Assembly (NCBI GenBank): GCA_900617105.1
Contig: UYFQ01000507.1
Location: 1 to 43,162 of the forward strand
Source of the DNA: Hydrurus foetidus
Lineage: Eukaryota
Length of the DNA stretch: 43,162 bases
Direction: 5' to 3'
Positions 3,323 to 35,749 of this stretch are shown here, piece by piece. A program made the translations under genes and the position numbers. Numbering within the stretch: the first letter of the stretch is position 1; each line of letters begins with the position of its first letter. Under the pieces are notes generated by a model. The model saw only the letters and a list, made by a program, of their open reading frames with translations, searched no databases and was not told the DNA's origin.

Positions 3323-3703
3323 TTACAGAATATTCTGCTGAGCCATGACAATCAAATAATTTGCCCAAAGGGCATCAGCAATTCCATTGCGCCACAGCTT
3401 TAAAGCATTGTAATTTTCATTGTTCTCGTCGTCTGCCTGATCATCAGGTTGAATATTATTCTCTACCACTCCTTCGAGGTAGAAGTCGTCCTCATACAGT
3501 TGATTTAGACGAATAAAATTATGCAATAGAAATGTACAATGCACGATATCACTTTGAAATTCAAAAGGGTATGGACTCATTTTGACCAGTATAGGGAGTC
3601 TTCTCTTCAAAACACCATACATTCTTTCAATAACATTTCTAAGTGATGAATGCCTAAGATTAAATAATTCTTTAGCATTTTGAGGACCGTTAACATCGTA
3701 CTC
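3323..3703 (-). pseudogene. Harbinger transposase, C-terminal part
   Basis: EYDVNGPQNAKELFNLRHSSLRNVIERMYGVLKRR...LLHNFI; joins in frame to YHLKE at 18480 when Gypsy A is removed. Confidence 0.9.
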
Positions 3704-3918
3704 TGTGGCCTTGCCAGGATCTGGGCACTGGGAGCGGGACGGCTGGGAGCGGGAGCAAGGGAAAGGAAGCTGGGAGCTATTGCTATGGAAACAATGTGGT
3801 TAGCTTACAGATAAACACAGCAGGTATCATGGCAATGAATCGGATGGATCGGATCGTCCTCGATCCGGTCCGAACGTACGCCTGTACCCGTACAGCCCGT
3901 ACGGGTGTGCGGGTCACA
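3704..3918 (-). repeat. 3' LTR of Gypsy A (215 bp)
   Basis: Near-identical to 18260-18476 (two substitutions and a 2-bp indel seen); short purine tract AGAGAGGG precedes it on the minus strand. Confidence 0.95.
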
Positions 3919-4087
3919 GTGCCCTCTCTAAAGGGGTGTACTAAATGACAAAATTCATCATCAAAATACTAACTATGAGTAAGTAACTAACTTATTGAAT
4001 AACTATTTCAGACTAAGAACTGAAAGTTCCACTGAATAAACTTTAAAACTGAGGAATTTGGAGGTCCTTTGGAGTCTTTATTTTTGT

Positions 4088-7000
4088 TTACCGTTCGGTA
4101 CGGAACGGATGGTAACTTGAGTATTGATCATGGTTCCCGTAATGTGTGATTTCCTTGTGATTGTGGTTGAGCCATTTCACATGAAATGTGAGTGATTTGT
4201 ATTTTATGTTTCCTTTCATTTCTAGGATTTCCTCTATGAAGAATTCTAGATAATCTCTACGAGCAATGTCAGTTGGATCGACATGCGTAGGATCAAAGTG
4301 AAACGGTTTTAGTTGGGTCATGTGGTACAACTTTTCTTTGTGTGTTACCAGATCGAGTAATGTATACTCTGCGAAGTTATGGCTGACAACTCGCATTGGG
4401 CCGCGCCACAGTGTGTGCATGCGCGTTTCTGGTGATGTTCTTTGTTGGACAAGTACAAATGTGTCGACCCCGAACTGTGTGACGTTGGGAAGTTGTTGTG
4501 CATTGTGCAAGTCGTCGGATTCTTTGAGTAGACGTGCGGTGATTTCGATGAGTTCATCTTGCAACGTTAACATTTTATCAGTTGACCGTGTGAGTGAGTC
4601 GAAATCTAAATCAATTTCATCTCTCGGAAGGAGGATGTTTGCGTCGAGGTCGATCGCGTTGCCATAGATGAGTTGTGCTGGAGACACTTTCATCCGGTCA
4701 TTTACGGTTGAATTTAGTATTCTTTTGTACGCATTCCCAGCCATATGTTATTTGTTTTTTTTAAATTACGCAGTGTGCGTTGTACACCACCATATCCGAC
4801 TATCGTGTTGTGGCACGTTGCAATTAGGTTATATTGCTCTGTCGTTATTGGTTTGTGTGTCAGAATTGCTGCTATTATCCCTGTTTTAGGTAGCATTCTG
4901 TTTAAACATAGGCGAGACATTGCGTCAGCAATTTCATTTTGTTTTCCCGGGATGTACTCTATCGTATATTCTAGTTCCTGCAGGGCCATACGCCATCTGC
5001 CGACCATCTCATATTTATCCTTTTCTAGGAACGTAAGATTTTTGTGGTCTGTTAGGATTGTGAATTTACGGTCTCGCAGCAGTGCGTCGAGATAAGTACA
5101 GCAATAATATAGCGCGAAGGCTTCTTTTTGTATTACTGACCATTTCAGTTGAGTCTTGGTAAGAGACTTGCTTACGAGAGCGACGAGTTGTTTTTCTCCG
5201 TCGACTTCTTGATACAAATAGCCGCCGATCCGTAATCTGACGCATCGGTCATGAGGGTAATGGGCGCTATCGTGTATGAAATATAATAAAGGACTCTTTG
5301 CAATTAGATCTTTTATCTTTTGAAAAGAATTTGCGGCGTCATCTGTCCAGATTAGCATTGATTGCTTTTTCGCGGCGTGATCTATAATTTTGTGCAGTGG
5401 TGCTACCACGTTGGAGTGATTTGGTACATGATCCCGAAAATAATTGGTGAGTCCGAGGAACGATCTAAGTTCAGTCGTCTTTCTTGGCATAGGAAAGTCG
5501 GTCACACCTCTTATTTTTTTGGAACTCATAGTTATACCTTCTTTAGATATTTGTCTACCGACATATTCAACTATTCGCACATTTAGCTTTAGCTTTGCGG
5601 CTTTTAGTGAAATGTTTTTGTTTTCTAGGCGTTGAAAAAGGATTTCTAATCGCTCGCAGAATTGATCAAATCCATTACCATAAACGATGATGTCGTCGAG
5701 GTATACTTCACAGATTTGGTATATTAGTCCTAAAAGGACTATTGAGGCCATCATTTCTTGGAAATATGAGGGGGCTCTTTTGGGTCCGAAAGGTAGTCGG
5801 GTAAAGTGGTAGATGCCCATAAATGTTATGAAAGCTGTATACACACGTGTACTTAGTGTTAACGGTGCTTGGTGATATCCTGCTGTGAGGTCTATTACAC
5901 CGAATGTGTCTGCTTTTTGTGAACCTAATCTTGCTAACATTTGTTTAATATTAGGGATTGGCCAGCTTGCTGATTCCGTTGCGTCGTTGAGGTGACGATA
6001 GTCGATACAGAATCGGTATGAACCGTCTGGCTTTGCCGCGAGTGTTACTTGCGAATAGTATGATGCCTCTGATTTGACTATTATACCCTGTTCAAGCATA
6101 GTTTCAACTTGTTTTCGGATTTCGACTTGTTTTCGTGTAGACGTTGGTCGTGGTGCTACGCGGTTTTTGAAAACTTTCCACTCTGGATCCCGTACGGGTA
6201 GTCCAAAGGGGGGAATTCGCGCGGGCTCTGGTCCGAGTTTGTTGTTAAATAGCTTTATGTGTTTGACACAAATTGCTTTAATTTTTGCTTGTTGTTCAGG
6301 GGTACCATCGATTTGTATTAGATCGATGAGGTACATTTTGTCCTCTGTTGGATTGTCTTGGAAAGGAGCGAAGGTATCCTTCGACTTGTAGTCAATCTCT
6401 TCGGGTCCGAAGGGTTGAACCTCTGGGAGTTCTTCACGCTCCCGGAGTAGAGCAGCAACTAAACCACGTGTTTGGGCTGGTGCCTTGGATGAGGGAGTAG
6501 GAGTAGCTAATTCCGGACTCCTGTCGGTTGTTACACCTAAATCATTTTGTCGGGGAGGTGACAACAAAACTGCTGCCTCGACCGTAGAGTGCAAAATGAA
6601 CTCATCAGAATCTAGCCTAGCCGCTGCCGCAGCTAAGCTAGTGGGACACCCACATGAAGGAGTGCATGTCTTGCTTGTACAAGCACCTCGAGCCACCAGG
6701 TCGTCTTGCCATCGACTGTCTGTGTCTGAGGGTTTTATCCCCTCTCGGCTAGTTATAACCGGAGGTATGGTTGGATCTGTAATGCTCGTAACTGTGTCCG
6801 ACTCTGCTTCTAGCATGAGTGGAACGTCCACGTGGTTTAATACCATGTTTGTGGATTGATTCAGTTTTTGTAATGAGTGAATTTTTTCATTTTCGATATT
6901 TTCCGGAGATTGGAAAAATTCCGGAATAATTTAACAAATTTAATTTTCTTATTGTCTCCAATCCTAAGATTAAGTCGACTTTGGAATCTTCTGCAATTCG

Positions 7001-7471
7001 CACCGGAAGAGAAAAAGTGTATTTTAAACCGTTTTTGTTAAATGATACAACAATATCAAGCACAGCAGTGGATTCAATACATTGATTGTTTAGACCCAAA
7101 CACATCCATATGGGAGAGTCGGTGGTGCGAAGTTGGGGTTCACCACGTAGGCCCCGAAGGACTCTACGATTGATTACGTCCCCAACTTGACATCCGGTGT
7201 CGATTTGGGCTGGGGCGGCCATGCCGTTATTTTGGTCCATAGCTGGAGGAAGATTTGGGTGGGGACCGGTCTCGATCGCGGCGATCTTTGTCTTTGTCCT
7301 TTTCCGCTTGGCGCGAGTCGTCTTTGCGGTTGGAGTCGCGGTCGCGGCTGTCAACTCGGTCGCCAAAGCGGTAGCCGGGGATTGGGTCTGAGGAAGATAT
7401 ATTGTTACTTGTAAGTAATCATCAATCTCGTTAGGTATGATTGTTGATAAAAGCATTTGCATGTTTGGCAA
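4088..7471 (-). pseudogene. Gypsy A pol: protease, RT, RNase H, integrase lacking its core, chromodomain
   Basis: AQIDTG (PR); FCIDYR, DLTAGYHQ, PFG, VYLDD (RT); TDH/ADAMSR (RH); LWRGPMRV; EFFIEEIL...FHVKW (chromodomain). Split over ORFs 6887-7471, 4714-6846 and 4088-4744. Confidence 0.9.
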
Positions 7472-7658
7472 AATACGATTTTCTGAGATATTTTCCGCAT
7501 ACGGAATTTTGGACTCACGTTTTCCTTTGTACCCGCGGTCTTTGATGTCGCGAGTATCGCGATTTTCGTTGCGATCGGTGTCGCGATTGTCTTTGCGGTC
7601 GTTGTCGCGGTTGGACCGGTCGTTGTTGCGATTGTTGTTGTTGTTGTTGGCTTTGGCC

Positions 7659-7987
7659 TATGCTGTGTCACGGTTTCAGCAACTGGCTGAAGACGAAGCT
7701 TTGAGTTTCAAGTTGGGCAAATGGGCGCAACAGGTTGGCTTGTCAGTCAAATGGGACTGATCAAGGAGATTGGCTGACTCAATTGAGTCAAAGTTGGTTT
7801 GGGTGGTTTAATAACGGTAGTTAATTAAGGTGTGAAAGGAGTGCGAGATTAGAGCTATACGAGCACACTGCAACTTGAAGTTTCCGAACAATCAGAAATT
7901 GAAAACTGATTCGAAAACTAGTGGTTACAAGCAAAGTTCAATGTGACTGTACGTACGTGTGAGTAATATATAGTGGAGACTATAACA
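7659..7987 (-). repeat. 3' LTR of Gypsy B
   Basis: Direct repeat of 15286-15614; minus-strand ends TGTTA...CATA. Confidence 0.95.
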
Positions 7988-7999
7988 CCACCCCATTCC
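7988..7999 (-). promoter_or_regulatory. Polypurine tract of Gypsy B
   Basis: GGAATGGGGTGG immediately upstream of the 3' LTR on the minus strand. Confidence 0.7.
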
Positions 8000-8358
8000 G
8001 GATGAAAAGTGTGATTAGGGTTGGAAATGAATAAATACAAAGTCATTACTACATCTCTGTGAGTTCGTTTATGAAATTGTATCGCTATAATAGCTTAATT
8101 AAAAATAAGTGGTTGGGTGGAAGTTGACGGGTTCGAACCCCTGCAAAATGCAGCTGAAGTGAAAATTAGACCAACAGGTGTGGCGTAAAAATTTTTCATG
8201 GCACTTTTCAGGGCACGCCAGGAAATGTGACGTGGCTGCAAAATGGAAATTCCAAGAAACGAAAAATTTCGCGACGCGAAATACTCTACTACTCAGCACT
8301 CAGCACATATTGAAGTTACAACTTCACCAATACACTAGGAGGGTTACAATATAGCAAA

Positions 8359-8997
8359 ATGTCAGGTGAATTTCTTCCATCGAAGAATTTATGCATGGCG
8401 GCGGCAATGGTTCTACCGCTGTCAGCGGAGCAACAGCAGTGGATGAGGTTGGGCGATGACGCAGGCAACACATTCAAAAAATCATTGGGATTGAATATAG
8501 ACGACAAGCTTCATTACGGAGCATCTGTCGAAGACGCATCGACGTATCTGAAGTATGTGTGTGCTAGGAACAAAGAGCTTGGGATTAAGTTAAAGTACGA
8601 GTTTCGGAGAGTCACAGGAAGGCATGGAAAGAGCCGTCGGTGGAATGCACATTCGATAGAGAAGACAGTTGTAAACAAGAAGGGAATTTATGTGGTATAT
8701 GGCAAAGCAAAATGGTTGAACAAGTTGCACACGGCACTGTTGAAGAGGATTAAAAAAGCAAATTGCGTGGGTGAAGAATTGGAGATTTACAGCATGGTGG
8801 CCAAGGGATTAAGCAGGATGGATCACGCCATTAGCATTCGTAGTGATGAAAACGGCGTCAGAATTTTTGATAATGCATGCACTAATGGTAGCATTAAATA
8901 TAATGTTCTGAATTTGGCAAGCAAAATGATTGATTTGACGAATTGTTATTATTTCGATTTGTATGAGAAGGGTAACAAGTCAAAGATAATTAAGTAG
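8359..8997 (+). CDS. Antisense accessory ORF in Gypsy B, 212 aa, putative papain-fold cysteine peptidase
   Basis: Uninterrupted ATG-TAG ORF between pol and the 3' LTR; motifs KNLCMAAAM, DHAISIR and VRIFDN in papain-like Cys-His-Asp order; the product is inferred. Confidence 0.6.
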   Translation: MSGEFLPSKNLCMAAAMVLPLSAEQQQWMRLGDDAGNTFKKSLGLNIDDKLHYGASVEDASTYLKYVCARNKELGIKLKYEFRRVTGRHGKSRRWNAHSIEKTVVNKKGIYVVYGKAKWLNKLHTALLKRIKKANCVGEELEIYSMVAKGLSRMDHAISIRSDENGVRIFDNACTNGSIKYNVLNLASKMIDLTNCYYFDLYEKGNKSKIIK

Positions 8998-9609
8998 AGT
9001 TTATTTTAGGGGGCAAGCCCACATTTTGAATGCCGTCCTCACATTATAGCTTCGGCTATGCTTCAATGAGTTGGAAAAAAAATGTGGTCAAGCCTCAGAC
9101 GCTTGGTATTAGCTTATGGATGTCATCGGCGGATTACTTTAAGGTAAGAATTTGATAGATTGTTGTAAAATAAATTTAATTATTTATTTCACGTATGTAA
9201 CATATTTAAATTTGTTATTTTTAATTTTTAAAATGACTCATATAATTATTTTAAATTTGTCAAATGACCTATTTAATTGTTATAAATGTGCAGAATAAAT
9301 TATTTAATCATTTATAATGCGTATTTATGTCGTGTATAACTATCGTACAGTATGGAATTATTATTTCATGTGTGTAAATATATTTTGACATGCGTTATTA
9401 ATAACTTACACATAGAATACATGAAGTAAAATTGTTGTTTGACATGTTATGTGAATTGTATGATGTGTGTAGTTGTCAATTTATTAGTGTGATTGTGGAT
9501 AATTGAATTTCGATGTGTATGAATATTTATCAAATGGAAAACATGCAGAATAGTAATTTATTTATGTGTCATATGCATATTGAATACATATGAGTGTTGT
9601 CGTGTAGGA

Positions 9610-12600
9610 CTATTGTGTAGAATTAACATTGTTTGACATGTCATTTGCATGTAGATGTTTATTTGTATTGTCGTGGGACAAGATTAGACATATTGTTTGC
9701 ATATAAATAGTCATGTACAACTGACACTTTTTAACTTCTGCCCATGGCTCCCATGTGTCATGTTCTGATGAGTAGTTGTGCCACCTGATTAGGAATTCTA
9801 GACTTGTGACTCGTTTGGAATCTCCTCTGTGACTTATGACTGAATCAATAATGTACTCATCTCGATCGAGCAGTGCTGCTGAAGTCGCAGCATCGGAGGA
9901 ACCTACGAATGGGGTGACGCGGCTGGAGTGAAGCTTCGAGACAATATTCGTGATGACGTGTCTGCAGGTGATATCATTCTTAGTTTGCTTTATTACTTCG
10001 TAGGGCCCAAGAAGTTTCGGAGAAAGTTTAGTGGATCGAAACGATTGTGGGGTCTCAAGTGGATTCCACAGAAGGTAGTCTCCGGGTTGATATTTGTTGT
10101 GTGTCGGTGTTTTAGCTAGCCGTTGAAGGCGGAGAGTTTGTTGGTACGATGATGTTATGGATCGAACAACAGAGAGATTGCGGTCAAGAGCAATCACTAG
10201 ATCACCGTAGGAGTGACCTGGTGATAGAGGAGGAGGTAAGTGAAAGCGAGCGTAGTCACGAGTTCCGTATTTTAGTTCAGCTGGTGTTACACCGCCTATC
10301 TCTGCGTTAGGCATCGTCATCATTGCGTGATTGATGAGAGGGAGCACGGTATCTGAGGCCCATTTGTTGGTGAATCGCTCGTCATGGACGAGCCTGCGCA
10401 GATGCCCCAGAAAGAGGGCATTAACGTGCTCAGTGCCGTTAGACTCATGGCGTCCAACAAGAGATATGCGGTGAGGTATTCCAAGCCATCGATTAAGATG
10501 ATCGAGGATGTCGGCAGTGAAAGCACTACCGGGGTCGGAGTAAATGGAGTCGTATGTGCCAAAGGTACAGTAGTGCTTAAACAAGACAGTAGCGGCTGTG
10601 TAGGCACTGTAGTCTTTGACAGGATACGCTTGTGGGAATTTGGTATCAAGTTCAACAACGAGAAGTAGACCAATGTAGCCGTCTTCGTCAGCTGGAGTAA
10701 CAGAGACGTGATCGAACCCAATTGAACGAGGATGGTGGAATAATGTTTCCCGAATTTCGTTGTACGGGATGGTCTTCAAAGGAAGACGGTCCTTCTGACA
10801 GATGGGGCACTCATTCACAAGATCCTCGACGACACGTACAGAGATGCCGTGACCAGGGAATCGTCGACAGAGGGCGAGATAGGTACGTTTAGCACCGTGA
10901 TGTAGAGATCGGCCACCGTGTACCGCGTCGAACATGTCTTTAGTCGTAAGGGATTGTAACATGGGTGATAGAGTGGATGGTGGTTGAGTGAGAGGGTGCA
11001 TACGCGACAGCCAGTCTGCCACAGTGTTGTCCTTTCCAGGAATATGCTTAACAGTGAAGACATAACTTTGTAGGAGAACACGCCAGCGGACTACTATGGG
11101 AACTTGACTGGTCTCAATCCAGACTAAGTTTCTATGGTCAGTCTCCAGTAGGAATGACTTACCACGGAGGTAGTATCCAAACTGAGTTACAGCGTAGTAT
11201 AAGGCATACGCTTCTTTCTTGAATGTGTCCCAATTGACAGCGGCACCAGAGTACTTATGCGAGGCGAAGGCGATTGGCTGATGGATGATGGTGTCTTGGG
11301 AATCGGTGAACTCTTGAAACAGGACGGCTCCTACAGCATGGTCGGAGGAGTCGGATCGTATGATCCAAGGTAGTGTATAATCAGGGAAGTGCAATGTGAC
11401 TGAGTCAGTTATAGCGACCTTAAAGAGTTCGAAGAGATGTTCGTAGTCTTTAATCCATGTTGACTGATCCCAGTTAAAACCAGTGGCTGTGCACTCGTAC
11501 AAGGCAGACGCCCATGAGGCGAAGTTGGGAATATGTGTATGGAAGAAGTTGGCTGCCCCTAAGAAGCTTTGCATTTGCTTCTGTGATGTAGGGAAGATCA
11601 TTGATGAGATAGCGCTTTTCCTAGCATCAGAGAGTTGCCAAGATCCTGGATGCACTTCATAACCGAAGAATGTAACAATGTCGGTGCCTATCCAAGACTT
11701 TTTAATCTTTAAAACAAGTCCATTGCTTTGACAGCGAAGTAGTACTTTCCTCAGTTTGTTAAGAGCATCTTGATAGCCTGAGGCCAGTACTAAGAAGTTG
11801 TCGAAGATAACAATGATCCAGTCGTCAAAATCAGCAAAGATTCTACGAACTATAGACTGAAGTATACCAGATGCAGGTCCGACACCCTCAGGCAGAAACT
11901 TCGGTCGAAAGAGTCCCCAGGGTGTGGACACTGAGAGTAGGTTAGAACTGAAATCATCGATAGGTATTTGGTGGAAAGAGTTTGTCATATCAAGATCGAC
12001 AAACACTTTCCAGCCAGCAGCTTTCGCAAGAGATTGTTGGACATGGGGTATGGGCTCTTGCGGGATACTGATGTATGGATTGATGGGGCGATAGTCACCA
12101 CAGAGCCGAATGAATGGAGAGGTTGCTTTCGGTGCAATGACAAGTGGACAGGCTATTGGAGATGTCGATACTTCGTAGAAGTATGTGCGCATTCTATCAA
12201 ACTCTGCTTTGGCGTCTTGATACAAAGCTTGCCGGACAGGGCGGGCTCGAGCTCTTAGAACGTCAGGTATGCCAGGCTTTATGTCGAGATGACATGGAGC
12301 CATGTTTATTCCCTTCCATGTGCTCGGGACAAATACGTCGTGTGCAAGTTCAGATTGGAGTAGTTCCATAATGGCTGGACATGCAGCTCGTATTTGAGGA
12401 GTGACGTGGGTGGCAAGATCGGAAGTGTAGATTGCTCGAGCTTCCTTCAGTGTAGTGGAAAGGTAGGCGAGGATATCATCAGGAAAGCTGGTTGGGTCAG
12501 GAGTGTTTAGCTCTTCAGGTGCGAGGGAATCAATTGGCTTAGACCAGGGTTGCATCATATCACCAGGATCCGGACTACATAGGAGAGCGCTTAAGGCATC

Positions 12601-13389
12601 ATATCGAGTCTCTACACGATTGTCGGCGAAGACATGGCCAAGATGAGGATGTGTCAGTATATCTGTAGTTGTACCATCCTGAAGAGCAAGTAGCCCTATT
12701 CGGGTGCTGGCACTGTCGCATATCTTGTTTTTACGTTGATGGTAGGCGGCATTGTGGTGTTGGAGAGAACGAGTTGCTCGTTCAATATCCTTAAGATTGC
12801 ACTGACTGTGAAGTACTTGAATTTCGACTGTAAGATCTCTCAAATGTGTTTCAAGATCATTTGTGATCGAGAGTTCGCGAGATTGAGTCACGGAGTCTGC
12901 AAACAGATCATAGAAGGGGCCGATAAGGTCAACTAAGCCGATGATAATGTCATGACTAAGAACGTCGAGAACGCTATACCATAGACAGTGTTGGTGGTTG
13001 TTACTTGCGGAGTCAAGTATACCGACAGTAAGAGGAACCTCGAGCTCAATCGATAGGGAGCGTGCATCACCTAGGCGGACGATGCGATCAATGGAGCGAC
13101 TGAGGTCAGTGATAGTTGAAGGTAGGCGGTTATAAACGTCACGGGAGATAAAGTTACTTCCTTGAGCTCCTGTATCAAGTAGACCGCGATCGAATAGGAT
13201 TGGATCGGTATCAGTTATGATGATACCAGAGCGAATAAATGGTTGGCAAAGTGTCTGCGAGGGTGTTGAAGTAGCAGATGCTAGTTGGTTGAGTAAAGCT
13301 TCTGTAATAACGTTGTCGGGGTCAAAGACATTTGCGTGTTGGAGATCTGGGGGAGAGGCGAGGTGATCTTCCGTGTGCATTTCAGCCAT
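9610..13389 (-). CDS. Gypsy B Pol (PR-RT-RH-IN-chromodomain), 1259 aa
   Basis: LLDTGA; LCGDYR, DLDMTNSFHQ, VIFDN; SDSS/EAYA/TDH/ADWLSR; HGGRSLHHG..CPIC, FDH/SDPG; LLGPY; EYIIDSV..FLIRW..DTWEP. Confidence 0.95.
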   Translation of the reverse strand: MAEMHTEDHLASPPDLQHANVFDPDNVITEALLNQLASATSTPSQTLCQPFIRSGIIITDTDPILFDRGLLDTGAQGSNFISRDVYNRLPSTITDLSRSIDRIVRLGDARSLSIELEVPLTVGILDSASNNHQHCLWYSVLDVLSHDIIIGLVDLIGPFYDLFADSVTQSRELSITNDLETHLRDLTVEIQVLHSQCNLKDIERATRSLQHHNAAYHQRKNKICDSASTRIGLLALQDGTTTDILTHPHLGHVFADNRVETRYDALSALLCSPDPGDMMQPWSKPIDSLAPEELNTPDPTSFPDDILAYLSTTLKEARAIYTSDLATHVTPQIRAACPAIMELLQSELAHDVFVPSTWKGINMAPCHLDIKPGIPDVLRARARPVRQALYQDAKAEFDRMRTYFYEVSTSPIACPLVIAPKATSPFIRLCGDYRPINPYISIPQEPIPHVQQSLAKAAGWKVFVDLDMTNSFHQIPIDDFSSNLLSVSTPWGLFRPKFLPEGVGPASGILQSIVRRIFADFDDWIIVIFDNFLVLASGYQDALNKLRKVLLRCQSNGLVLKIKKSWIGTDIVTFFGYEVHPGSWQLSDARKSAISSMIFPTSQKQMQSFLGAANFFHTHIPNFASWASALYECTATGFNWDQSTWIKDYEHLFELFKVAITDSVTLHFPDYTLPWIIRSDSSDHAVGAVLFQEFTDSQDTIIHQPIAFASHKYSGAAVNWDTFKKEAYALYYAVTQFGYYLRGKSFLLETDHRNLVWIETSQVPIVVRWRVLLQSYVFTVKHIPGKDNTVADWLSRMHPLTQPPSTLSPMLQSLTTKDMFDAVHGGRSLHHGAKRTYLALCRRFPGHGISVRVVEDLVNECPICQKDRLPLKTIPYNEIRETLFHHPRSIGFDHVSVTPADEDGYIGLLLVVELDTKFPQAYPVKDYSAYTAATVLFKHYCTFGTYDSIYSDPGSAFTADILDHLNRWLGIPHRISLVGRHESNGTEHVNALFLGHLRRLVHDERFTNKWASDTVLPLINHAMMTMPNAEIGGVTPAELKYGTRDYARFHLPPPLSPGHSYGDLVIALDRNLSVVRSITSSYQQTLRLQRLAKTPTHNKYQPGDYLLWNPLETPQSFRSTKLSPKLLGPYEVIKQTKNDITCRHVITNIVSKLHSSRVTPFVGSSDAATSAALLDRDEYIIDSVISHRGDSKRVTSLEFLIRWHNYSSEHDTWEPWAEVKKCQLYMTIYMQTICLILSHDNTNKHLHANDMSNNVNSTQ

Positions 13390-13407
13390 GGAAGGCCTCG
13401 CGAACCC

Positions 13408-15132
13408 CTATTTCTGATATGGGCGCATCGGTGTTGACAATGGAGGAGGTCGTGCTGCTCCTGGCACTTGTGGGGGTCCATAGTGTTTGTATCCATGTGA
13501 GTTGCTCGTTTTAACTCCACTTATCGGTTCCTGTTTGGGTGGAGACCATGGTTCTAGCTGTCCGTGCAGTAGCAATTCACGCTTGGTGAGAAGCGAGAAA
13601 GACTGAATACAGCGTTCCTGGCCGGCGGTTGAGTGATCGAAGGTGCAGCCGGAATGTTGGCGAGCGCATTTGCCGTAGACGAATGCTTCACTGCAGTATC
13701 CACGGAAGGTTGCGGAAACAGCTGATCGGGACCGATGCTGATCGACATTGATCGCAAGAAGAGATTCATCCTCAGGGTCTAGTGTGTCGACACGATCCTG
13801 AGGTCTGTCTTCATGTACTTCATGAATCAGGTCATCTTCATCTTCGAGGTCTTCTTCGTTGCATGCATTCTCGGATGCATTGAACAGTGGGTTAGCAGAC
13901 GTTGCTAGCGACGAGAAGTTTGATTGTGGACGCTGATCGTATTTGCGAGGAGTGACAAATGGCTGACGACCTGTATTGGACACCTGATGTCGGGTATGAG
14001 ATTCGCCTTGAGTGTATCTCAGATCTTCGTAGCGAATAGGAGTGAGCCTGGCGTCCAAGTCCTGTCGTGCTTCGCTTTGAGCACGACCTTCCATTAGTCG
14101 AGCCCTAACAAACTTGACTGCTTGTTCTACAGACTTCTGCTTAATGAGCTCGTCCTTGCTGAGCCATTGTAAGATGGAGTCTTTCTGAGCACCAAGGGAG
14201 ATGAGCCACAAAGCGATTTGGCCAGGGCTGTCTCTTGTGCCGTAACCAGGTACTGGCATCTTGGATTTGTTGGCGCTGTGATTTGAGGTTTCTTCAGACA
14301 TCAGATCATGCAGATGGAGCAAGTCAGTGAGCGACTTCATTAGAGGGGCATAGAAGGTGCTAGAGAAGTTGTCGGTGCTGATTGATGGTGTCTGTGGTAT
14401 TCCTTTGCCAAGAAACAATATTAGTTCCTTGGAGTACAATTCTTTTGTTCGAGGTCGTGCAGCTTCCACGAGGATAGCTTGAACCTCGGAGTTGGTTAAA
14501 GATAACCAATCTTCTACCATGACCTCGTTTGGTTCGGCGCCAGTGATAACTGACTCTCGATACTGGTGTGAGTTCCATGATGCCAATACGTGAGGGCGCA
14601 GGTTGTATGAAACCATGTGGGCCATTTTGATTTCACGTCCTGGATATTTGGAGGAAAGCAATTGAAGTTGGCGAGAAAGGTACTGGAGGCCTTCTAGAGA
14701 ACTGATCTTGAGTTCCTTGTCGTAAACGATGTCAGCTTGGAGGACTTGGATGTTTGGTTTGGTCGGCATGTCTGGTCTATCAGTGTTGTCTGGAAGTGAT
14801 TCCAGATTGTTCGGTTGGTAGTGCGGCATGCCGAAGAACATCGATGATCTTCTCCCGCGATTGCGATCAGGAAGTGGAGTATCGATGAACTCATCACGTA
14901 GTGGAGATTTCAAGTTCGATTTCTTGATTTCCAGGATTGCGTCTTTGAGTTCGCGGATATCGGTGCGATGGCGAAATTGGATTTCGCTACTTGTAGCTAG
15001 GAACTGATGGAACATTTCCTTGAGCTCCAAGATAGGATCATCCGAAGGCTCATCCTCTGGATCTTTCTTTGGGATTCCTTGTCCTTCGGACATTGTTGAA
15101 GGATAGCAGCTGTAGATGTGGTCGATTTGCAA
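13408..15132 (-). CDS. Gypsy B Gag-like protein (probable start MSEGQG)
   Basis: 574-codon ORF between the 5' LTR and pol, in the same frame as pol; C-terminal C-x8-C-x6-C-x3-H. Confidence 0.85.
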   Translation of the reverse strand: MQIDHIYSCYPSTMSEGQGIPKKDPEDEPSDDPILELKEMFHQFLATSSEIQFRHRTDIRELKDAILEIKKSNLKSPLRDEFIDTPLPDRNRGRRSSMFFGMPHYQPNNLESLPDNTDRPDMPTKPNIQVLQADIVYDKELKISSLEGLQYLSRQLQLLSSKYPGREIKMAHMVSYNLRPHVLASWNSHQYRESVITGAEPNEVMVEDWLSLTNSEVQAILVEAARPRTKELYSKELILFLGKGIPQTPSISTDNFSSTFYAPLMKSLTDLLHLHDLMSEETSNHSANKSKMPVPGYGTRDSPGQIALWLISLGAQKDSILQWLSKDELIKQKSVEQAVKFVRARLMEGRAQSEARQDLDARLTPIRYEDLRYTQGESHTRHQVSNTGRQPFVTPRKYDQRPQSNFSSLATSANPLFNASENACNEEDLEDEDDLIHEVHEDRPQDRVDTLDPEDESLLAINVDQHRSRSAVSATFRGYCSEAFVYGKCARQHSGCTFDHSTAGQERCIQSFSLLTKRELLLHGQLEPWSPPKQEPISGVKTSNSHGYKHYGPPQVPGAARPPPLSTPMRPYQK

Positions 15133-15285
15133 AGACTTTTCAATTCAGCTCTCCTAGGGAATTCAATTTACCTCAGAGATTCTAAATCTCGCGGAGCCAG
15201 GGCGATCACTGCTTGCTGGCGGAAAGGAAAGAATCAACTGAGACTTAGACGTTGTCTCGTCTCGTGTAAACTAGAAATATATATT

Positions 15286-15614
15286 TATGCTGTGTCACGG
15301 TTTCAGCAACTGGCTGAAGACGAAGCTTTGAATTTCAAGTTGGGCAAATGGGCGCAACAGGTTGGCTTGTCAGTCAAATGGGACTGATCAAGGAGGTTGG
15401 CTGACTCAATTGAGTCAAAGTTGGTTTGGGTGGTTTAATAACGGTAGTTAATTAAGGTGTGAAAGGAGTGCGAGATTAGAGCTATACGAGCACACTGCAA
15501 CTTGAAGTTTCCGAACAATCAGAAATTGAAAACTGATTCGAAAACTAGTGGTTACAAGCAAAGTTCAATGTGACTGTACGTACGTGTGAGTAATATATAG
15601 TGGAGACTATAACA
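15286..15614 (-). repeat. 5' LTR of Gypsy B
   Basis: Direct repeat of 7659-7987. Confidence 0.95.
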
Positions 15615-15631
15615 GGCCTTGTTGTTCTTGC

Positions 15632-15727
<96 letters not shown>

Positions 15728-17706
15728 GGACTTGCGAGGGTCGTCTTTTGCAGCGGGACCCATGTCATTTTCGACGTCGTCGGTTGGGTAGACGTATGTT
15801 GCCGCGCCAGGATTGTTGGTTGTCCTGGTCATTTCGCCATTGAGTAGGACGTTTGGGACGAAATGGTCGTGGCCAATTCTCCTGAACTCTGTTGCCAACG
15901 TGGATTGACTCCACGTGGTATACGAGTTGTTGCAATGAGGATTCATGAAATTGCGACAATCGTAGCGATTGTGTCCTTGGCGACCGCAGGTGTGGCAATT
16001 ATCGATTGTTTTGCTCAGACCTGGGTAGGCGTCGGATTCGCGTTTGGGTATCGTGCGGTAGGAGGCGGAGAGCTGCGTTGTGTTGCTGGACGACAATGAG
16101 TCGGGGTGATTTTGGTCTCGAAGTCGTAAGCGAAGACCACCCATGTTGGACGCGTTGATAACTGTTTGCCGAGCTTCACTGAGGCAGAGATTCATTCGGC
16201 ACAACATGTTTGGGATGGAATCCTTTTGTTGTTTCTTGTTTTGTCCTTTGTAATGTTCATGAAGTTTTCAGTGAACTTATTATCAAGAGGGAGCTTTTTG
16301 TAGATGATCTTACAGATCTCATGTTGGCGGTCTGCAGGTATATTGTCGTAGCTGCCGTAGTATCCGAAGAGGATGTCTCGGAGTCGTGCAATTGCCGCCA
16401 ACTCTACGTTTGGGTTTTGCCATTTGATCTTCATTTGCCAGTTTTTCAGGGCAAGGTCCAAGTCATAGGTAGACTCTGTGGCGCGATCACTGAAGAATAG
16501 TTTCTTGAGATCGGTGGCCATGTCGCGAATGGACAGGAGTTTGTCGTCGATGATGGGCCAGGTTTGACACATTTTGATTGTGTATCCGAGAGTCTTTCGA
16601 TTTTGAAGGAGACTGTCTCGGATCACATGGACAGCTTCGTCTTCGATGAGATCCTTCCAAGGTGCATTAAACTGAGGGCGGTGCGCCTGTGTATAGAACT
16701 TTCGGGCTGTGCCGTCCATGTCCTTCAGTAATGTCTCACGTGTTACATAGAACACTTCCTTCATGTTGATGAGGGAGGTTGTGAGTGCTTGGGGTGTTCG
16801 TTGTTGTTCGAAGACTGTGTCAGCCTCTTCGGTTTTGCGCTTGCGGTTTGAAGTGGCAGCCGCTTTCGTGGAAGCTGTCGCTGACTTCTTTGCAGCTGCT
16901 ACCGTTGCTTTCGACGTTTTGGATCTGGTGGCACGCGTGGGTTTGTCTTCAGATTGGACGGCAGAGAGTTGTTTTGCCTCCCTTGTTTTGGCAAGGGGTT
17001 TGATTGGCATAGCCTTTTTCTTTTTCGGTTTTGGTGACGGTGGGGTTGACGCTTCCGACTCACTTTGATCTTCCTCGTCCGATTTGGACTTGGTATCGTC
17101 GGGGTTGTTGTCTTCCTCTTCGTCCTCGTCGTTGGTTTGTTCGTCTTCCGCCTCTTCCGAGGCGTTGTCAGACACCGAGACGTTATCATCGTCGGAGAGA
17201 ATTTCCTTCGGAGATATTTTGGTACCGATTTTGTCGTCGCCCTCTTCCGTTTGAGAAGGATTGATATCCTCTTCTTCTTCGGTTTGGGGTCGGATTGGAG
17301 AGCCATCCTCATCTGACTGAGGGTTTAGACTGTGTAAGTCATTTGTCTCTTGCATCCAGGCTGACAAGTCTTTCAGTTCTTGATCTTCGAGATCAGATCT
17401 GTTGTCAGCCTGTTCCTGCAGCACTTCAAGTCGCACGCGATTGCGTTCACGTTCTTGTTGTAGCTCCAGGAAGCGTGCTTCGTTTGCCGCCAATTCGTCG
17501 GATATGCGCGTATGGGTGCTCGAGGCTTTGATAGCCGATTTGCCCAGCGTCTTCATGGAGTTGGCTATATTGTCTTCTCGAGCGAGACGCTCGAGTTTAG
17601 CCTTCTCTTTATCCGATAGGAAGAGGATATTTTGGGGTTTGGAGCGTTTGGAAGACGAGCTAGCTTCGCTAGAGCTCTCTTTCTTGGTTTTTTGGGCCTT
17701 AACCAT
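15615..17706 (-). pseudogene. Gypsy A Gag (frameshift near 16200; continues below 7658)
   Basis: ORFs 16192-17706 and 15545-16207; CCHC knuckle CHTCGRQGHNRYDC; long charged low-complexity N-terminus. Confidence 0.8.
15619..15729. repeat. (TTG)n microsatellite in Gypsy A gag (poly-Asn/Thr)
   Basis: About 110 bp of TTG repeats; similar repeats continue at 7622-7649 on the other side of Gypsy B. Confidence 0.9.
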
Positions 17707-18259
17707 CTTGAAAACTTGGCGTGGGAATTCTCACTGGAACTCTGCGTCTTGGACAGCGACGGAACGCGGACGCGGTGATTCAGGGAAAAGAGGAGTAGGT
17801 TGTTCGAGGGTGAGGACTGGTAGGTAGGATGGGTAAGTGTGGTAGTAGGAGTCAGGGGATTGGAATGGTTTGGTGCGATTTCGGGAGGAAATCGCAACAA
17901 AATTTGGACGTGGGCGGCGGCTTCGTAAGGAACGAAGCTGGGCGTGGGCGCGTTGGATTTCGTTCGTGAACGAGTTTGGGAGGTGTTACTTGCTTGCAAG
18001 TTCCTTTCCTTCGTAAGCCTTCGCGTAGAAGAGCTGCATATTTTGGGAATAAATCGCCAATATTTGAGGTCGCGAACGACTACGATTCAGAGGCTGTCGC
18101 GTTGACGAGACCTTTGTAGTATCGTTTGGGGTGGTTTTCACTCTTGGAGAGTTACTCAACTTGTTCCTCAGACTGTTTTACGGTCGTTGCGGGATTTTTT
18201 GTTGGACGTTTGGTCAACTTGGATCTTAGAGATCGCTAGCTGGTTCCAAATACCGGTAT

Positions 18260-18476
18260 TGTGGCCTTGCCAGGATCTGGGCACTGGGAGCGGGTCAGCT
18301 GGGAGCGGGAGCAAGGGAAAGGAAGCTGGGAGAGCTATTGCTATGGAAACAATGTGGTTAGCTTACAGATAAACACAGCAGGTATCATGGCAATGAATCG
18401 GATGGATCGGATCGTCCTCGATCCGGTCCGAACGTACGCCTGTACCCGTACAGCCCGTACGGGTGTGCGGGTCACA
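18260..18476 (-). repeat. 5' LTR of Gypsy A (217 bp)
   Basis: Direct repeat of 3704-3918. Confidence 0.95.
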
Positions 18477-19255
18477 ACTCTTTTAGGTGGTATCTAACTC
18501 CTCTGTAAGGGGTCAAAACATGCTCACTTAAAGCGTAACATGCATCGCCCAAGTAGTACTTACTAGGCAGTAACGGTAATCCTCTGCCTTTAGAATCATC
18601 AAAAACACGACTGTGTGTGCTAACCCTCCCAACCGAATAGAACAAAGGCAAAAGTAAGGTCAAAATTAGATACTCCTAGCACATTCTGGGTGATAACTTT
18701 TTTCCTATTTCGGTAAGCCTCTTGATCTACGATAGGAATACAAGCAGGAATATGCGTACCATCCAGAGCTCCGATGCAATTATCGAAAAATGGTGAAAAC
18801 TTCGCGGAAGTAGCTATTTGAGACGGTGCTGGTGCACCAATAATTGAAGGCTGGAATACGATTCCGCTGCAACCGATGAGCGCATCGCTTGCCTCGTGAA
18901 TAATCTTCGAAATAGTAGAACCACTGTGTTGCCACCTTTCCTTTATTTGGCGATTGGTATAACCCCTCAGAACTTGCACTAAAACCATGATTTTTTGACC
19001 TGCACAAATATACAAAGAGTCCTCGAGACCATCAGCTTCCATCATCATAATTCTTAATTTAATAAATGTTGATCGATCCATTCTTGCAACCTCGTGAAAC
19101 CTGTGCACGTTGTACGTCTCCATGACTTCAGCAAAGTACAGCTGACCAGTCAAAACAGAGGTGTGTTGGAGTACAGGATTTCGCGCGACATTTTGCAGCG
19201 CACCGACTACGGCAGTGACAACAACTATTGCTTGAAGACCATCATCTTCTTCCAT
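18477..19255 (-). pseudogene. Harbinger transposase (DDE_Tnp_4/HARBI1-like), N-terminal part
   Basis: RMDRSTF, ERWQHSGSTIS, CIGALDGTHIP, QNVL, GWEG (frameshift), YYLGDACY, TPYRGVRYHLKE. Confidence 0.92.
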
Positions 19256-21521: not shown

Positions 21522-21776
21522 TTCTGTGTTATTACGCATTGACTCCAAGTTGCAGTTTAGTATGAGTGGTTGTGTATTGCGTAATTGTACCTTTCAGGAT
21601 GCTTCTTTTTCATGCCACCGAAGTGTTTTTGAGCCTGCTGTCGTTTTACGGTATTCAAAACGGTTTCTACGACGCGTAGCGTCGTTCTGGCGCGGATCCT
21701 TTTCGACCCGCGCGTGAAAACGGTGAAATCTGGCCGGAAGCTCATGACCGGAAAGGGCGCTGGGGCCTTGAGGATA

Positions 21777-22380
21777 AATAGTAATTTCGTACCGAGACCA
21801 CAAAACAGTGGCGTTTTTCGTACCGAGAGGCTCTTTTCGAACCTCGGACTGGGGCCGATACCCGTATAAGAGTCTTTATAGGGCTCCAGGTGGATAATAG
21901 TAATTTCGTACCGAGACATAAACAGAGGCGTTTTTCAGAGGTTCGAAAGAGCAGAGGTTTCATGGTCGAGCGTTTATCGTACCGATGCTCGCTTGTTGCA
22001 CGAGAAGAGCCGAGGTTTCATGGTCAAGCGACAACGTTACTTTATCCACGGTGAGACCGATGCTCACAGCGGTACTGACACTTGCAGGGTATCCGAAGGT
22101 CACAGTCGCTACCGAGGAGGCGTTTTTCGTAAAGGCTGAGTTCATGGTCGAGCGTACGAACGTTACTTTATCCACCGTGAGACCGATGCTCACAGCGTTA
22201 CGAAAAGGTAGACTGATACTCACAGCGGCCATCATTTTTTTTTCGACCGCTGTGACCTTCGGTCTACCTTCTCGTACCGCTGTGGTCGATCTACCTTTCA
22301 TACCAGCGGTTTGAAAAACTCAAAATTTAGGGGGAGCCGATACCCGTATAAGAGTCATTACAGGGCTTCAGGTGGATAAA
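21777..22380. repeat. Modular repeat mosaic related to 35790-37121
   Basis: Shared modules ATAGTAATTTCGTACCGAGAC, TTCATGGTCGAGCGTACGAACGTTACTTTATCCACCGTGAGACCGATGCTCACAGCG and GCCGATACCCGTATAAGAGTC. Confidence 0.85.
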
Positions 22381-30128: not shown

Positions 30129-30469
30129 TGTTGGAGATATCGTAGTTTATGACACGGACACAATCAGTGTACTTATGCATTCGTACGGTCGTACGGATTA
30201 ATTTGTGTGTGTGTGTGTGTGTGTGTGTGCGTACATGCGTGACGACGATGAATGGACCCGTGCATCGTCTCTGTACTTCAAGCGTAGTGTAGAATGTCTT
30301 TTGTTGTTGCGTTGAAAGGGACTCGGGGACTTCAGCAGGGATGAAGCACAGTCAATTAACAAGTGTTTACTGCCATACAAGAGCTTATTTCACGAGTCCT
30401 GACCGAGTGACCTTCAACCACAGTACAGCGAGAGGCGTACGTGTGGGCCGAACCGAAGATCCGTCAACA
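30129..30469 (+). repeat. Copia 5' LTR (341 bp, contains (TG)n)
   Basis: Matches the 3' LTR except at the TG tract. Confidence 0.95.
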
Positions 30470-30472
30470 TAA

Positions 30473-33400
30473 TTGACTGCCACAGGCATTCCGATGCCTC
30501 CCAAACGCGCCGCAGAAGCTTTCAAAAGTACAGAGGAGTGTATGCTTCAATACGGCAAACACAACAACATTATCAAATGGAGAGAACACATGCAAACGGT
30601 TGTAACCGAACTATACGGGATAGTTGGCATGTTCTTCACAACAAATGTGAGATACGAGCTCCCGAGAGTTTCTTACAGGGATTACCCTGCAGATTCGTCA
30701 TCGGAAAGCTCCAGTTCCGAAGAAGACGACGAGATAGCCGAAGGTCAACAGGAACAACCGCCTGACCCAGAGACCGTGGCGTACGCCGCCGCGAGGCCTG
30801 CTCGCATCGCCGCCAGACAGGCGAGGAACGAGAGGAGGCGTAAAGCGTCAGAACGCTCTAGAGCAAAATTTAAAGAAGATGATTACATACAGAGAAAGAG
30901 GGACATCAAAACGCAGAAAGAGAACGAACGTACGATGTACCCGATGATGTGGAAGCGCATGTCGCTGCTATCACAAAGTAGGGTGAGGGAGGAGGAAGAT
31001 TTCAAGACAGCATATGACACCCTGGACTGTGTCATGTTGTGGACGCTCATAAGGAGGACTCACCTCACACACATGTACGGGGGCGATGAGACACTGCAGG
31101 AGTACAACCAACACGAACAGGAGAGTAAGTACGGCTCAATGAGGCAAGGTGAGAGAGAGCACATTGTCACCTTCAAGAACAGATTCGATGAACAGGTAAC
31201 CGCGAACGCTGCTGTCGGAATCGCTGCGGTGACAGAGTCGAAGCGAGCATTGGATTTCCTAGGGAAGCTCGACACTCGAAGGTACAAGATCATGCTAGAC
31301 GACATGAAGCATGACGCCTTACGACGCAAACCAGGGGCGTTCCCAACCACACTCGCCCTAGCTTTCCACATCGCCTCAGAGTGGAATGACCGAGTCCCTG
31401 CATCCACACCCACACCGACACCGGCGGGTGCGAACGCAGCGTACGTGACCGAGGGAGTCCACGTCACAGCGGCCAAGGACCCGGAAAAGAAAGCGGGGAA
31501 AGCCGGAGGTGGCAGCAAGAAATCCTTAGCAGACGTCGAGTGCTACAAATGCGAAACAATGGGACACTACGCGCGGAACTGCCCACAGAAGAAATCGTCG
31601 TCATCGGAAAAAGTCCACGTCACGGTGGAAGAGTCAGACGAAGAATACGAAGGAGAGTCGAGCGAGTGGGGTGTAGCTCTCGTCACTGGCGATGAAATAT
31701 GCTGCTTCTCCAGATTCGACGTGCTGTTAGACAACGAGGCCTCGCTGAACATATTCAATAACGCTGAACTACTTACTGACCTGAGGAAGTCGCAGTCGAC
31801 AATTCGAGTGAGCGGTATCCAGCAAGGAGGAGGAGTGAGCGTAGATCGGGAAGGGGAGTTCGGAGAGTTCGGCACAGTGTACTACAGTAGTTCGGCATCG
31901 GCAAACATCCTGTCATTCGCGTCGCAGGTCGACTCAGGTGCGTCGATCAGATATGACCACCTGAGCGACTGCTTCACTCTTAGTCCGAAGAGCAGCACGA
32001 GGATCTATCGGTTCGGGAGAAAGCGAGTCATAGGAAGCGAGGGGAGGTTCTACTCGTGCGACTGGAGGGATGTCGAGCACGACAAAGCGTTAGTAACTAC
32101 GGTGGTTGAGAATCTGAAAGCGTTTACGAAACGAGAGATCGAGCAGGCGAGACGAGCTCGTGAGCTGCTCGCTAGGATGGGCTTCCCGACGGTGGAACAG
32201 GCGATGTCGATCGTGAACAGCGGAAGCAACTTCGACATTACGGCGAGAGATTTCCAGATCGCTGATGCGATATGGGGCAAAGATATAGCCTCTATAAAAG
32301 GGAAAACAGTGAAGAGAGCTACTGCTATCGCTGATATTACAGTCAGCACGAAACTAATGCAAAGGGATCAGGTGCTGTCTATCGACATTATGTTCATAGA
32401 CAAACTAGCGATACTAGTTGGGGTATCTACACCACTGGGACTAACTATTGCATATAGCCTAAACACAGCAGATTTAACAAAGCCAGCAAGGACAGCAGCC
32501 CAAGTAAAGATCGGGATAAACCATTTTATCGCAGTCCTCGCTGCGCAAAACTTCAGGACCTCCATAATCATGAGCGACGGAGAGGGGGCTGTCAAGAGTC
32601 TCATTGACGAGCTGGGAAGGCTCGGTGTGGAGGTTGACGTCAGTGGAGCCGGCGGCCACGTCGCTAGGATTGAGAGAAAAATTCGCATTGTTAGAGAACG
32701 GGTACGATGTCACGTAGCGTACCACCTTCCGTTCACACTATCGACGGTGGGTATCGCCATGCTCGTACTGTACTGTATATCCAGGCTGAACTACGAACCG
32801 GCCGGATTACGGGAATGGGGCCCGAGTCCGCGTGAAGCATACATCGGTAGGAAGCCTGATGGTAAGAGAGACTTTAGATGCTCTTTCGGAGATTATGTGC
32901 AATGTACCGTTCCTAACACTGACTCAGGATTCAAGAGCCGAACCGAGGACTGTGTGGTTATGCTCCCCCTCGGAAATCGCACGGGCTCAGTGAGAATGCT
33001 TTCGCTCAGCACAGGAAGACTAGTGAACAGGGACCAATTCAGAGTGCTACCGATGCCCGAGTCCGTTATAAAGAGACTAAATGAACTCGCACATGCAGAT
33101 GGTAGAGTAAAAGGGAAGGGTGATCTGTACGCACGGCCCACGTCGTACGAGCAGTACGGGAACGCTGCCAAGGGACTGCCCGACACGATGGAACCCAACG
33201 TCAACAACGGTGTGGATCCATCGATAGAACCTCTAGATGACGACCGTGAGACTAGAAACGAAGAGGTAGACAACGGTGACCAGCATCAAGACAATGGAGG
33301 AGAATTGGGTGAACAACAGTACGACAACGGCGAAGCACCGAACGAGGTAGACCCGAGGGACGATAGTGAACCATACGAGGAAGCGGTACAGGCCGAACAA

Positions 33401-33556
33401 CCTGAAGAGCGCGACAATGATATAGATGATCTGATCGATAGTATGAACCGGATGCGAGCTGGGCCGAGGGACCAAGTTGAAGATCCCACGGGGGGACTAG
33501 ATGAGAGAGGAATACCGGAGGACTACATATCGACAGACGGGAGACCAGACGAGTAA
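30473..33556 (+). CDS. Copia Gag-protease-integrase (probable start ATG at 30494)
   Basis: CYKCETMGHYARNC; VLLDNEAS; SIDIMF, MSDGEG, HVARIERKIR. Confidence 0.9.
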   Translation: MTATGIPMPPKRAAEAFKSTEECMLQYGKHNNIIKWREHMQTVVTELYGIVGMFFTTNVRYELPRVSYRDYPADSSSESSSSEEDDEIAEGQQEQPPDPETVAYAAARPARIAARQARNERRRKASERSRAKFKEDDYIQRKRDIKTQKENERTMYPMMWKRMSLLSQSRVREEEDFKTAYDTLDCVMLWTLIRRTHLTHMYGGDETLQEYNQHEQESKYGSMRQGEREHIVTFKNRFDEQVTANAAVGIAAVTESKRALDFLGKLDTRRYKIMLDDMKHDALRRKPGAFPTTLALAFHIASEWNDRVPASTPTPTPAGANAAYVTEGVHVTAAKDPEKKAGKAGGGSKKSLADVECYKCETMGHYARNCPQKKSSSSEKVHVTVEESDEEYEGESSEWGVALVTGDEICCFSRFDVLLDNEASLNIFNNAELLTDLRKSQSTIRVSGIQQGGGVSVDREGEFGEFGTVYYSSSASANILSFASQVDSGASIRYDHLSDCFTLSPKSSTRIYRFGRKRVIGSEGRFYSCDWRDVEHDKALVTTVVENLKAFTKREIEQARRARELLARMGFPTVEQAMSIVNSGSNFDITARDFQIADAIWGKDIASIKGKTVKRATAIADITVSTKLMQRDQVLSIDIMFIDKLAILVGVSTPLGLTIAYSLNTADLTKPARTAAQVKIGINHFIAVLAAQNFRTSIIMSDGEGAVKSLIDELGRLGVEVDVSGAGGHVARIERKIRIVRERVRCHVAYHLPFTLSTVGIAMLVLYCISRLNYEPAGLREWGPSPREAYIGRKPDGKRDFRCSFGDYVQCTVPNTDSGFKSRTEDCVVMLPLGNRTGSVRMLSLSTGRLVNRDQFRVLPMPESVIKRLNELAHADGRVKGKGDLYARPTSYEQYGNAAKGLPDTMEPNVNNGVDPSIEPLDDDRETRNEEVDNGDQHQDNGGELGEQQYDNGEAPNEVDPRDDSEPYEEAVQAEQPEERDNDIDDLIDSMNRMRAGPRDQVEDPTGGLDERGIPEDYISTDGRPDE

Positions 33557-35344: not shown

Positions 35345-35410
35345 TTAAATTATTAAGACAACATATGCGTGATGTGTGAATAGAAATGATTGTGATGTGG
35401 CATAGGGGTG

Positions 35411-35749
35411 TGTTGGAGATATCGTAGTTTATGACACGGACACAATCAGTGTACTTATGCATTCGTACGGTCGTACGGATTAATTTGTGTGTGTGTGTGT
35501 GTGTGTGTACGTACATGCGTGACGACGATGAATGGACCCGTGCATCGTCTCTGTACTTCAAGCGTAGTGTAGAATGTCTTTTGTTGTTGCGTTGAAAGGG
35601 ACTCGGGGACTTCAGCAGGGATGAAGCACAGTCAATTAACAAGTGTTTACTGCCATACAAGAGCTTATTTCACGAGTCCTGACCGAGTGACCTTCAACCA
35701 CAGTACAGCGAGAGGCGTACGTGTGGGCCGAACCGAAGATCCGTCAACA
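35411..35749 (+). repeat. Copia 3' LTR
   Basis: Direct repeat of 30129-30469. Confidence 0.95.

Follow-up and report, generated by a model that had tools for sequence, protein, structure and literature searches.

A 12-bp perfect palindrome occupies the position of a PBS at the 5' LTR's end in two Ty3/Gypsy retrotransposons of Hydrurus foetidus, Gypsy A and Gypsy B. We find the feature to be real; in Gypsy families it is conserved and covaries, and an analogue has been published. From its position, its perfect symmetry, changes at mirror positions and the pairing of its flanks, all read in the sequence, we favour, at somewhat better than even chances, the interpretation that the palindrome is a primer site that would work by self-priming in trans between two packaged RNAs.

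Both elements lie in the 43,162-nucleotide stretch analysed here (the window), together with a Copia element, Copia C. The assignment of Gypsy A and Gypsy B to Ty3/Gypsy follows from LTRs with TSDs and from the pol order protease-RT-RNase H-integrase; the closest solved relative of their RTs is that of Ty3. A chromodomain (PF00385) is present in Gypsy B and in most homologues of Gypsy A. The features are as follows.

3704-18476, minus strand: Gypsy A, whole element.
18260-18476, minus strand: 5' LTR of Gypsy A (TG..CA), with TSD ACTC at 18477-18480.
18249-18260, minus strand: perfect 12-bp palindrome AATACCGGTATT of Gypsy A, in the place of a PBS; its base at 18260 is shared with the 5' LTR as the LTR's terminal A.
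15545-17730, minus strand: 5' part of Gypsy A gag, first ATG at 17706, frameshifted and split by Gypsy B.
4088-7657, minus strand: end of Gypsy A gag and remnants of protease, RT (YLDD), RNase H and integrase, frameshifted.
3704-3918, minus strand: 3' LTR of Gypsy A, with TSD ACTC at 3700-3703 and a purine tract just upstream, at about 3919-3930.
7659-15614, minus strand: Gypsy B, whole element, inserted in an asparagine-coding repeat of Gypsy A gag.
15286-15614, minus strand: 5' LTR of Gypsy B (TG..TA), with TSD GGCC at 15615-15618.
15275-15286, minus strand: perfect 12-bp palindrome AAATATATATTT of Gypsy B, in the place of a PBS; its base at 15286 is shared with the 5' LTR as the LTR's terminal A.
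13408-15144, minus strand: Gypsy B gag, first ATG at 15093; its terminal TAG is in frame with pol.
9610-13407, minus strand: Gypsy B pol, open over 1265 aa, with protease, RT (IFDN at 11797-11808), RNase H, integrase and chromodomain.
7659-7987, minus strand: 3' LTR of Gypsy B, with TSD GGCC at 7655-7658 and a purine tract just upstream, at about 7988-7999.
30129-35749, plus strand: Copia C, a young element with a 5-bp TSD (TGCGC) and without a TGG site.

Both insertions are young, as the few differences between the LTRs indicate: Gypsy A has 2 mismatches and 2 gap columns in its pair, Gypsy B 2 mismatches in 329 bp. Gypsy A is defective, because its pol is frameshifted and its integrase core mostly absent; its damage comprises the frameshifts, the insertion of Gypsy B and the loss of most of the integrase core. 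The gag and pol frames of Gypsy B are both open, with one in-frame TAG between them.

The initial annotation had described the two palindromes, their one-base overlap with the LTR end and the absence of a TGG adjoining the LTR, and we confirmed all of this for both elements, the overlap with 4-bp TSDs (ACTC and GGCC). Judged by the window alone, both Gypsy A and Gypsy B could equally well have a 5-bp TSD and an LTR shortened by one base. The LTR end of Gypsy A is fixed at 18260 by contigs that leave the element there into mixed flanks (8 in run X1 and 5 in run X3); direct support for the end of Gypsy B at 15286 comes from one contig starting exactly there, and its relatives share the register. 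From base composition, the chance of such a palindrome is about 2.5×10−4 per element and 5×10−7 for both, with 3 registers allowed in each. The two elements are only 27% identical over RT-RNase H. Within the Gypsy A family, variants listed at 1% or more affect 0 sites in the palindrome and 7 sites elsewhere in 131 bases, which is too few to serve as evidence. A TGG lies directly behind the palindrome of Gypsy A; we rejected it as a displaced PBS, because of its distance of 11 nt to the LTR end, its lack of conservation and its pairing with a CCA in U5.

No TGG-led PBS was found near the 5' LTR of Gypsy A or Gypsy B or at any of the 40 sites listed among the relatives described below, and the window contains no tRNA gene. 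In 38 elements, the 400 nt upstream of the site were searched for a Tf1-type complement and compared with shuffles. Complements of 8-10 nt reached p≤0.05 in 4 of the 38, a single one attaining 10 nt, so that a Tf1-type complement in the LTR, which bears on the transcript 5'-end match that the initial annotation had set against its own proposal, was looked for and not found in this set. Among these four, the match is TATA-like in Gypsy B and L020, the other two being L025 and L138; that of Gypsy B (8 nt) was rejected as a Tf1-type complement, being a TATATA segment near the LTR start that likely lies upstream of the transcript start. When the same test was applied to Copia C as a control, a 10-nt complement was recovered that occurred in 0 of 100 shuffles: the 10 bases after its 5' LTR (30470-30479) are perfectly complementary to 30349-30358 within the LTR, a Tf1-type self-priming signature. 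A downstream inverse copy of the type called CHSeq2 in fungal GalEa elements was also sought, 8-70 bases downstream, and was rejected as an explanation, appearing in 1 of 38 elements at p≤0.05. As far as the sequences go, neither tRNA 3'-end priming nor Tf1-type priming explains the feature.

To assess conservation, four scans for relatives were combined, yielding 120 loci; 71 without the upstream region and 2 with fewer than 120 bases of it were left out, and the 47 kept by hand, in which a gag-like ORF is preceded by at least about 145 bases, collapse to 42 families. In 33 of the 42 families, the 250 bases preceding the gag ATG contain a perfect palindrome of at least 12 bp, compared to 4.31 expected from dinucleotide shuffles; the gag ATG of one family (L019) was picked after the palindromes had been viewed, and the count without it is 32. 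Gypsy A and Gypsy B fall in two separately supported clades (SH-aLRT 99 and 100), here clades A and B, which in both quick trees form an open fork with L115 and five unnamed outgroups. Three families (L109, L116 and L115) stand outside both clades, and inside them the palindrome is present in 32 of 39. The outgroup Gypsy elements L109 and L116 have ordinary TGG-type sites and L115 has neither type; the palindrome match of L109 sits in its LTR. As for the families counted as misses inside the clades, L001 and L113 (the latter placed by tblastn only) carry a 12-mer further upstream, directly behind an ACA end, L048 and L050 have 10-bp cores that are unlike each other at the central pair, and L042, L044 and L049, on short contigs that reach just 206-256 bases upstream, show no palindrome. 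The matches of L037 and L047 are atypical. The register is shifted by one base in L059 and possibly in L054 and L062, and one subgroup extends the palindrome to 14 bp. Long perfect palindromes also occur upstream of the 12-mer in L029 (32 bp and 18 bp, in 1-1031) and in L003 (24 bp, upstream of gag).

A neighbouring host gene in the window has its named relatives mostly in ochrophyte algae (47-52% identity), one relative of Gypsy A clusters with sequences of Chlorochromonas danica, and samples carrying this DNA include freshwater biofilm, sediment and glacier; these relationships point to an ochrophyte host, probably a chrysophyte. Gypsy pol is encoded on 54 contigs in prokaryote genome bins (L067-L120), with 10-22 matches in each of several glacier-stream bins; these contigs are probably eukaryotic contamination. 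One B-clade element from the viral contigs, L002, comes from a contig assigned by its label to a giant-virus bin, possibly as contamination from the host or as a passenger. A scan of viral contigs with a single protein gave no match.

The palindromes keep their symmetry while their letters change. In a set of 40 elements, chosen for having a palindrome and therefore giving descriptive counts and no test, the palindromes amount to 17 distinct 12-mers, with 2-4 pair types at each of the 6 pairs. The first base of the palindrome completes CA or TA in 36 of the 40 elements, and ATA directly follows the LTR at 31 of the 40 sites. Wherever a purine tract is in view (L001, L003, L006, L012, L112, L132, L134, L137 and L138), this first base closes an LTR starting with TGT; LTR starts of the relatives were taken by direct reading, the automatic purine-tract anchor having placed them crudely. 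Pairs of close relatives differ at mirror positions: 2 and 11 in L025/L028 (90% RT identity), 5 and 8 in L006/L008 (85%), 6 and 7 in L020/L021 (85%), and again 5 and 8 in L017/L052 (75%). Together with the 33 of 42 families, these changes provide the conservation with compensatory substitutions that the initial annotation had suggested looking for. Many members have LTRs ending in TA, not CA (15286-15614 of Gypsy B; L006, L077, L132, L137, L020 and L038), and in one subgroup the LTRs apparently read TAAT..ATTA and accompany a 14-bp palindrome.

We then left the four central bases open in a search pattern run over five bins carrying such contigs. Of 20 matches, 8 were palindromic, compared to about 1 in 16 by chance; all 6 matches with Gypsy homology were palindromic (one being the known L077 and another closely resembling L083), and 0 of the 12 non-palindromic matches had homology to the retroelement set used. 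This result bears on the idea that the palindrome is an AT-rich chance feature or a DNA-level site, for the integrase or for a dimeric transcription factor. The outer AATA..TATT is indeed fairly conserved and AT-rich. However, chance is excluded by the enrichment among families and by the free-centre test, and a protein site would keep its sequence, whereas here the centre varies freely yet stays symmetric; we give this explanation hardly any weight. Pairing of the site with a fragment of a host tRNA or with another small RNA is just as improbable, since 17 perfectly symmetric 12-mers would require as many palindromic primers, and anticodon arms have a non-pairing loop. Half-tRNA primers without TGG do occur in Copia lineages, according to the accessible parts of two papers (PMC6317226, PMC10886601).

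The palindrome of Gypsy A is embedded in a predicted longer structure.

18234-18275, minus strand: predicted U5-leader stem around the palindrome of Gypsy A, with the U5 arm at about 18261-18273 and the leader arm at about 18236-18248; the arms pair with −8.8 kcal/mol.

Across the elements, 15-base flanks pair more strongly with their own partner than with the flanks of other elements (−6.69 vs −4.35±0.34 kcal/mol, n = 39 with L032 dropped, uncorrected for relatedness). The difference appears in clade A (−8.56 vs −5.14 kcal/mol) and in clade B (−5.86 vs −4.28 kcal/mol), and the identical geometry placed at 16 upstream offsets gives a mean of −3.16 kcal/mol. By these folding energies, the flanks form a covarying U5-leader stem in both clades. 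On its own, the 12-mer forms no stable hairpin (mean 0.0 kcal/mol), and its homodimer has a mean of −10.05 kcal/mol. In most examples shown, the monomer is predicted to fold into a U5-leader hairpin whose loop contains the palindrome centre. For the 42-mer, the dimer is favoured over two monomers by 13.2 kcal/mol, a value that leaves out concentration and proteins and is based on means including the incomplete row L032.

Self-priming in trans would use this structure as follows. Each RNA would first fold into the U5-leader hairpin, presenting the self-complementary centre in the loop. In two co-packaged genomic RNAs the hairpins would open into a 12-bp duplex through the palindrome, the RNase H of the element would cut one RNA at the 3' end of the palindrome, making it the primer for the other, and the new 3' end would be extended into the U5 and R of the partner in minus-strand synthesis. 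Bases 1-11 of the palindrome are the exact complement of bases 2-12, so cutting behind base 11 would leave 11 nt paired right up to the LTR end. In Tf1, an 11-nt pairing abuts the LTR end. To our knowledge, cutting of an RNA-RNA duplex by RNase H is known for Tf1 only, which counts against the scheme, as does a register that is not the same in every family. The R-U5 of the primer itself would be complementary to the DNA that it primes and could thus be shortened by RNase H down to the palindrome. The site would be copied by the plus strand from the primer and by the minus strand from the template; a one-sided mutation would then produce a heteroduplex, whose repair would yield either the original or a new perfect palindrome, and mirror-paired changes could arise in one step.

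The same hairpin could also act within a single RNA, which would be cut 3' of the palindrome and extended on its own U5, the centre being kept by plus-strand transfer and repair. The flanking stem covaries and the monomer hairpin is predicted in most examples shown, as this route would have it; a perfect centre is expected as well, since plus-strand transfer would need it, and symmetry repair fits folding back too, so the perfect centre alone is no proof of a dimer. After the cut, however, the primer end would be held only by a 4-bp AU-rich stem, for which reason we rank this route below priming in the dimer and judge it unlikely; the lack of a stable fold in the 12-mer alone also argues against it. 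What stands of the proposal in the initial annotation is a tRNA-independent priming by the palindrome, which is conserved, covaries, has no LTR complement and is best read in this way; between its two versions, pairing with a second RNA and folding back, the sequence does not decide.

Pairing of two RNAs could instead serve dimerisation or packaging, like the dimer initiation site of retroviruses, while a protein, an unrecognised RNA or nicked DNA would do the priming. Such signals are known to be built as hairpins with a self-complementary loop, and the comparison has been raised for GalEa in the accessible text of PMC5445492. According to the same text, however, known signals come on top of a PBS, and here the register of the PBS, at the LTR end, is taken by the palindrome itself and the search found no other primer site; a role in dimerisation without priming is accordingly rather improbable. 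We consider it slightly less probable still that the primer is donated by a second, shorter transcript starting at the last base of the LTR, the first 11 bases of which would pair with the full-length RNA in the exact geometry of Tf1, as a separate RNA. The complementarity of bases 1-11 to bases 2-12 agrees with it, as does the ATA with which most sites begin, like the PBS of Tf1 (ATAAC in the part of PMC11042837 available); the covarying U5-leader stem is less well explained by such a transcript than by self-priming between two genomic RNAs.

The initial annotation knew of no description of such a site, which is too strong a statement. In the fungal (Pezizomycotina) Ty1/Copia elements GalEa, Donnart et al. 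(2017) reported that a 9-bp sequence, palindromic with the final A of the 5' LTR, replaces the PBS (PMC5445492). The palindrome geometry is already in print for Copia. In the accessible parts of that paper, a priming role as PBS is proposed for this Conserved Hairpin Site (CHSeq1/CHSeq2), dimer initiation sites are mentioned, no described model is said to fit and no mechanism is given. The GalEa palindrome has 10 bp and two sequences account for 85% of the families, whereas the Gypsy palindrome has 12 bp and at least 17 sequences with mirror changes; and where GalEa has a second, 9-bp inverse copy 12-41 bp downstream, the Gypsy elements (1 of 38 with such a copy) have a shorter stem directly flanking the palindrome instead (PMC5445492). 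We see an even chance that, beside tRNA priming and Tf1 fold-back, cross-priming in the dimer is a third and general mode of initiating reverse transcription in LTR elements, with the dimer as primer-template and a self-correcting symmetry, used in two deep Gypsy clades and, with a shorter palindrome, in GalEa.

Other known systems share parts of this anatomy, as described in the available portions of the cited papers. Tf1, Tj1 and the Tf1/sushi group are tRNA-free chromodomain Gypsy elements with a short AT-rich ATA site abutting the LTR and a primer presumably cut from the element RNA (PMC4600332, PMC6317226, PMC11042837), and Tj1 and the plant elements Tcn1/TAR use LTR complements (PMC4600332, PMC6317226). 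The partner of the Tf1 site, however, is the 5' end of the Tf1 mRNA, within the LTR, whereas the site described here is its own complement and has no such LTR segment. Retroviral dimer initiation sites and the palindromes of Ty1 and Ty3 likewise are 5'-leader palindromes in hairpins, able to join two RNAs (PMC5445492, PMC6844567, PMC11381356), but they act beside a tRNA PBS, which is here replaced. Skipper of dictyostelids is a chromodomain Gypsy element with no TGG site and no LTR complement for which novel priming is suspected; it has a polypyrimidine stretch where the palindrome lies here (PMC5006619). The biv-TRIM elements of bivalves have no canonical PBS, and their inner domain contains palindromic segments as well as inverted repeats, but they are non-autonomous, are likened by their authors to the GalEa hairpin, and have no fixed 12-bp register reported in the accessible text (PMC6934838). 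Brown-algal chromodomain Gypsy lineages are reported to be unrelated to chromoviruses (PMC12477816). Term searches in the available text of the paper on Helenus (PMC10886601), an Anopheles survey and papers on choanoflagellates, oomycetes and Ectocarpus found no palindromic PBS, and neither a palindromic site for Gypsy nor a dimer-priming model was found in the open-access literature, a search covering few subscription papers and not Repbase.

If self-priming in trans is correct, RNA dimerisation and priming would be one event, so that packaging two genomes would be coupled directly to the onset of DNA synthesis, and the element would be freed from host tRNAs. It would also offer a testable mechanism for the GalEa site, open since 2017. 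Variable centres could stop co-resident families from mixing; the RNAs of Gypsy A and Gypsy B cannot fully pair. Annotation tools based on the PBS would miss or misclassify these abundant elements. With its open gag and pol and its near-identical LTRs, Gypsy B is a ready substrate for a complementation test.

The pol of Gypsy B has a further peculiarity. Its RT catalytic motif is IFDN (11797-11808, minus strand), not YxDD, and 118 of 119 homologues share it, the remaining one having IYDN. The Gypsy A clade keeps YxDD, and because Gypsy A has YLDD, the IFDN motif is independent of the palindrome. In Ty1, the matching change, D211N, was reported in the accessible part of PMC2148107 to keep polymerase activity in vitro and to lose transposition; the IFDN-bearing clade B is nevertheless young and widespread. 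A whole-word search of the open-access literature did not find the motif.

At the gag/pol junction, the B clade has a single in-frame stop, TAG in Gypsy B (13408-13410, minus strand) and 36 in relatives (26 TGA and 10 TAG), which suggests stop-codon readthrough. Between pol and the 3' LTR of Gypsy B lies a 1.6-kb region (7988-9609) with an antisense frame of 227 codons (8314-8997) that has no Pfam match, and some relatives (L006, L009 and L019) have large extra ORFs in the corresponding place. Elsewhere in the window, related nested inverted repeats at 21776-22380 and 35790-37122 are possibly two copies of a MITE- or foldback-type element, and a 3.2-kb AAAATC array, satellite or telomere-like, runs from about 39900 to the window end at 43162.
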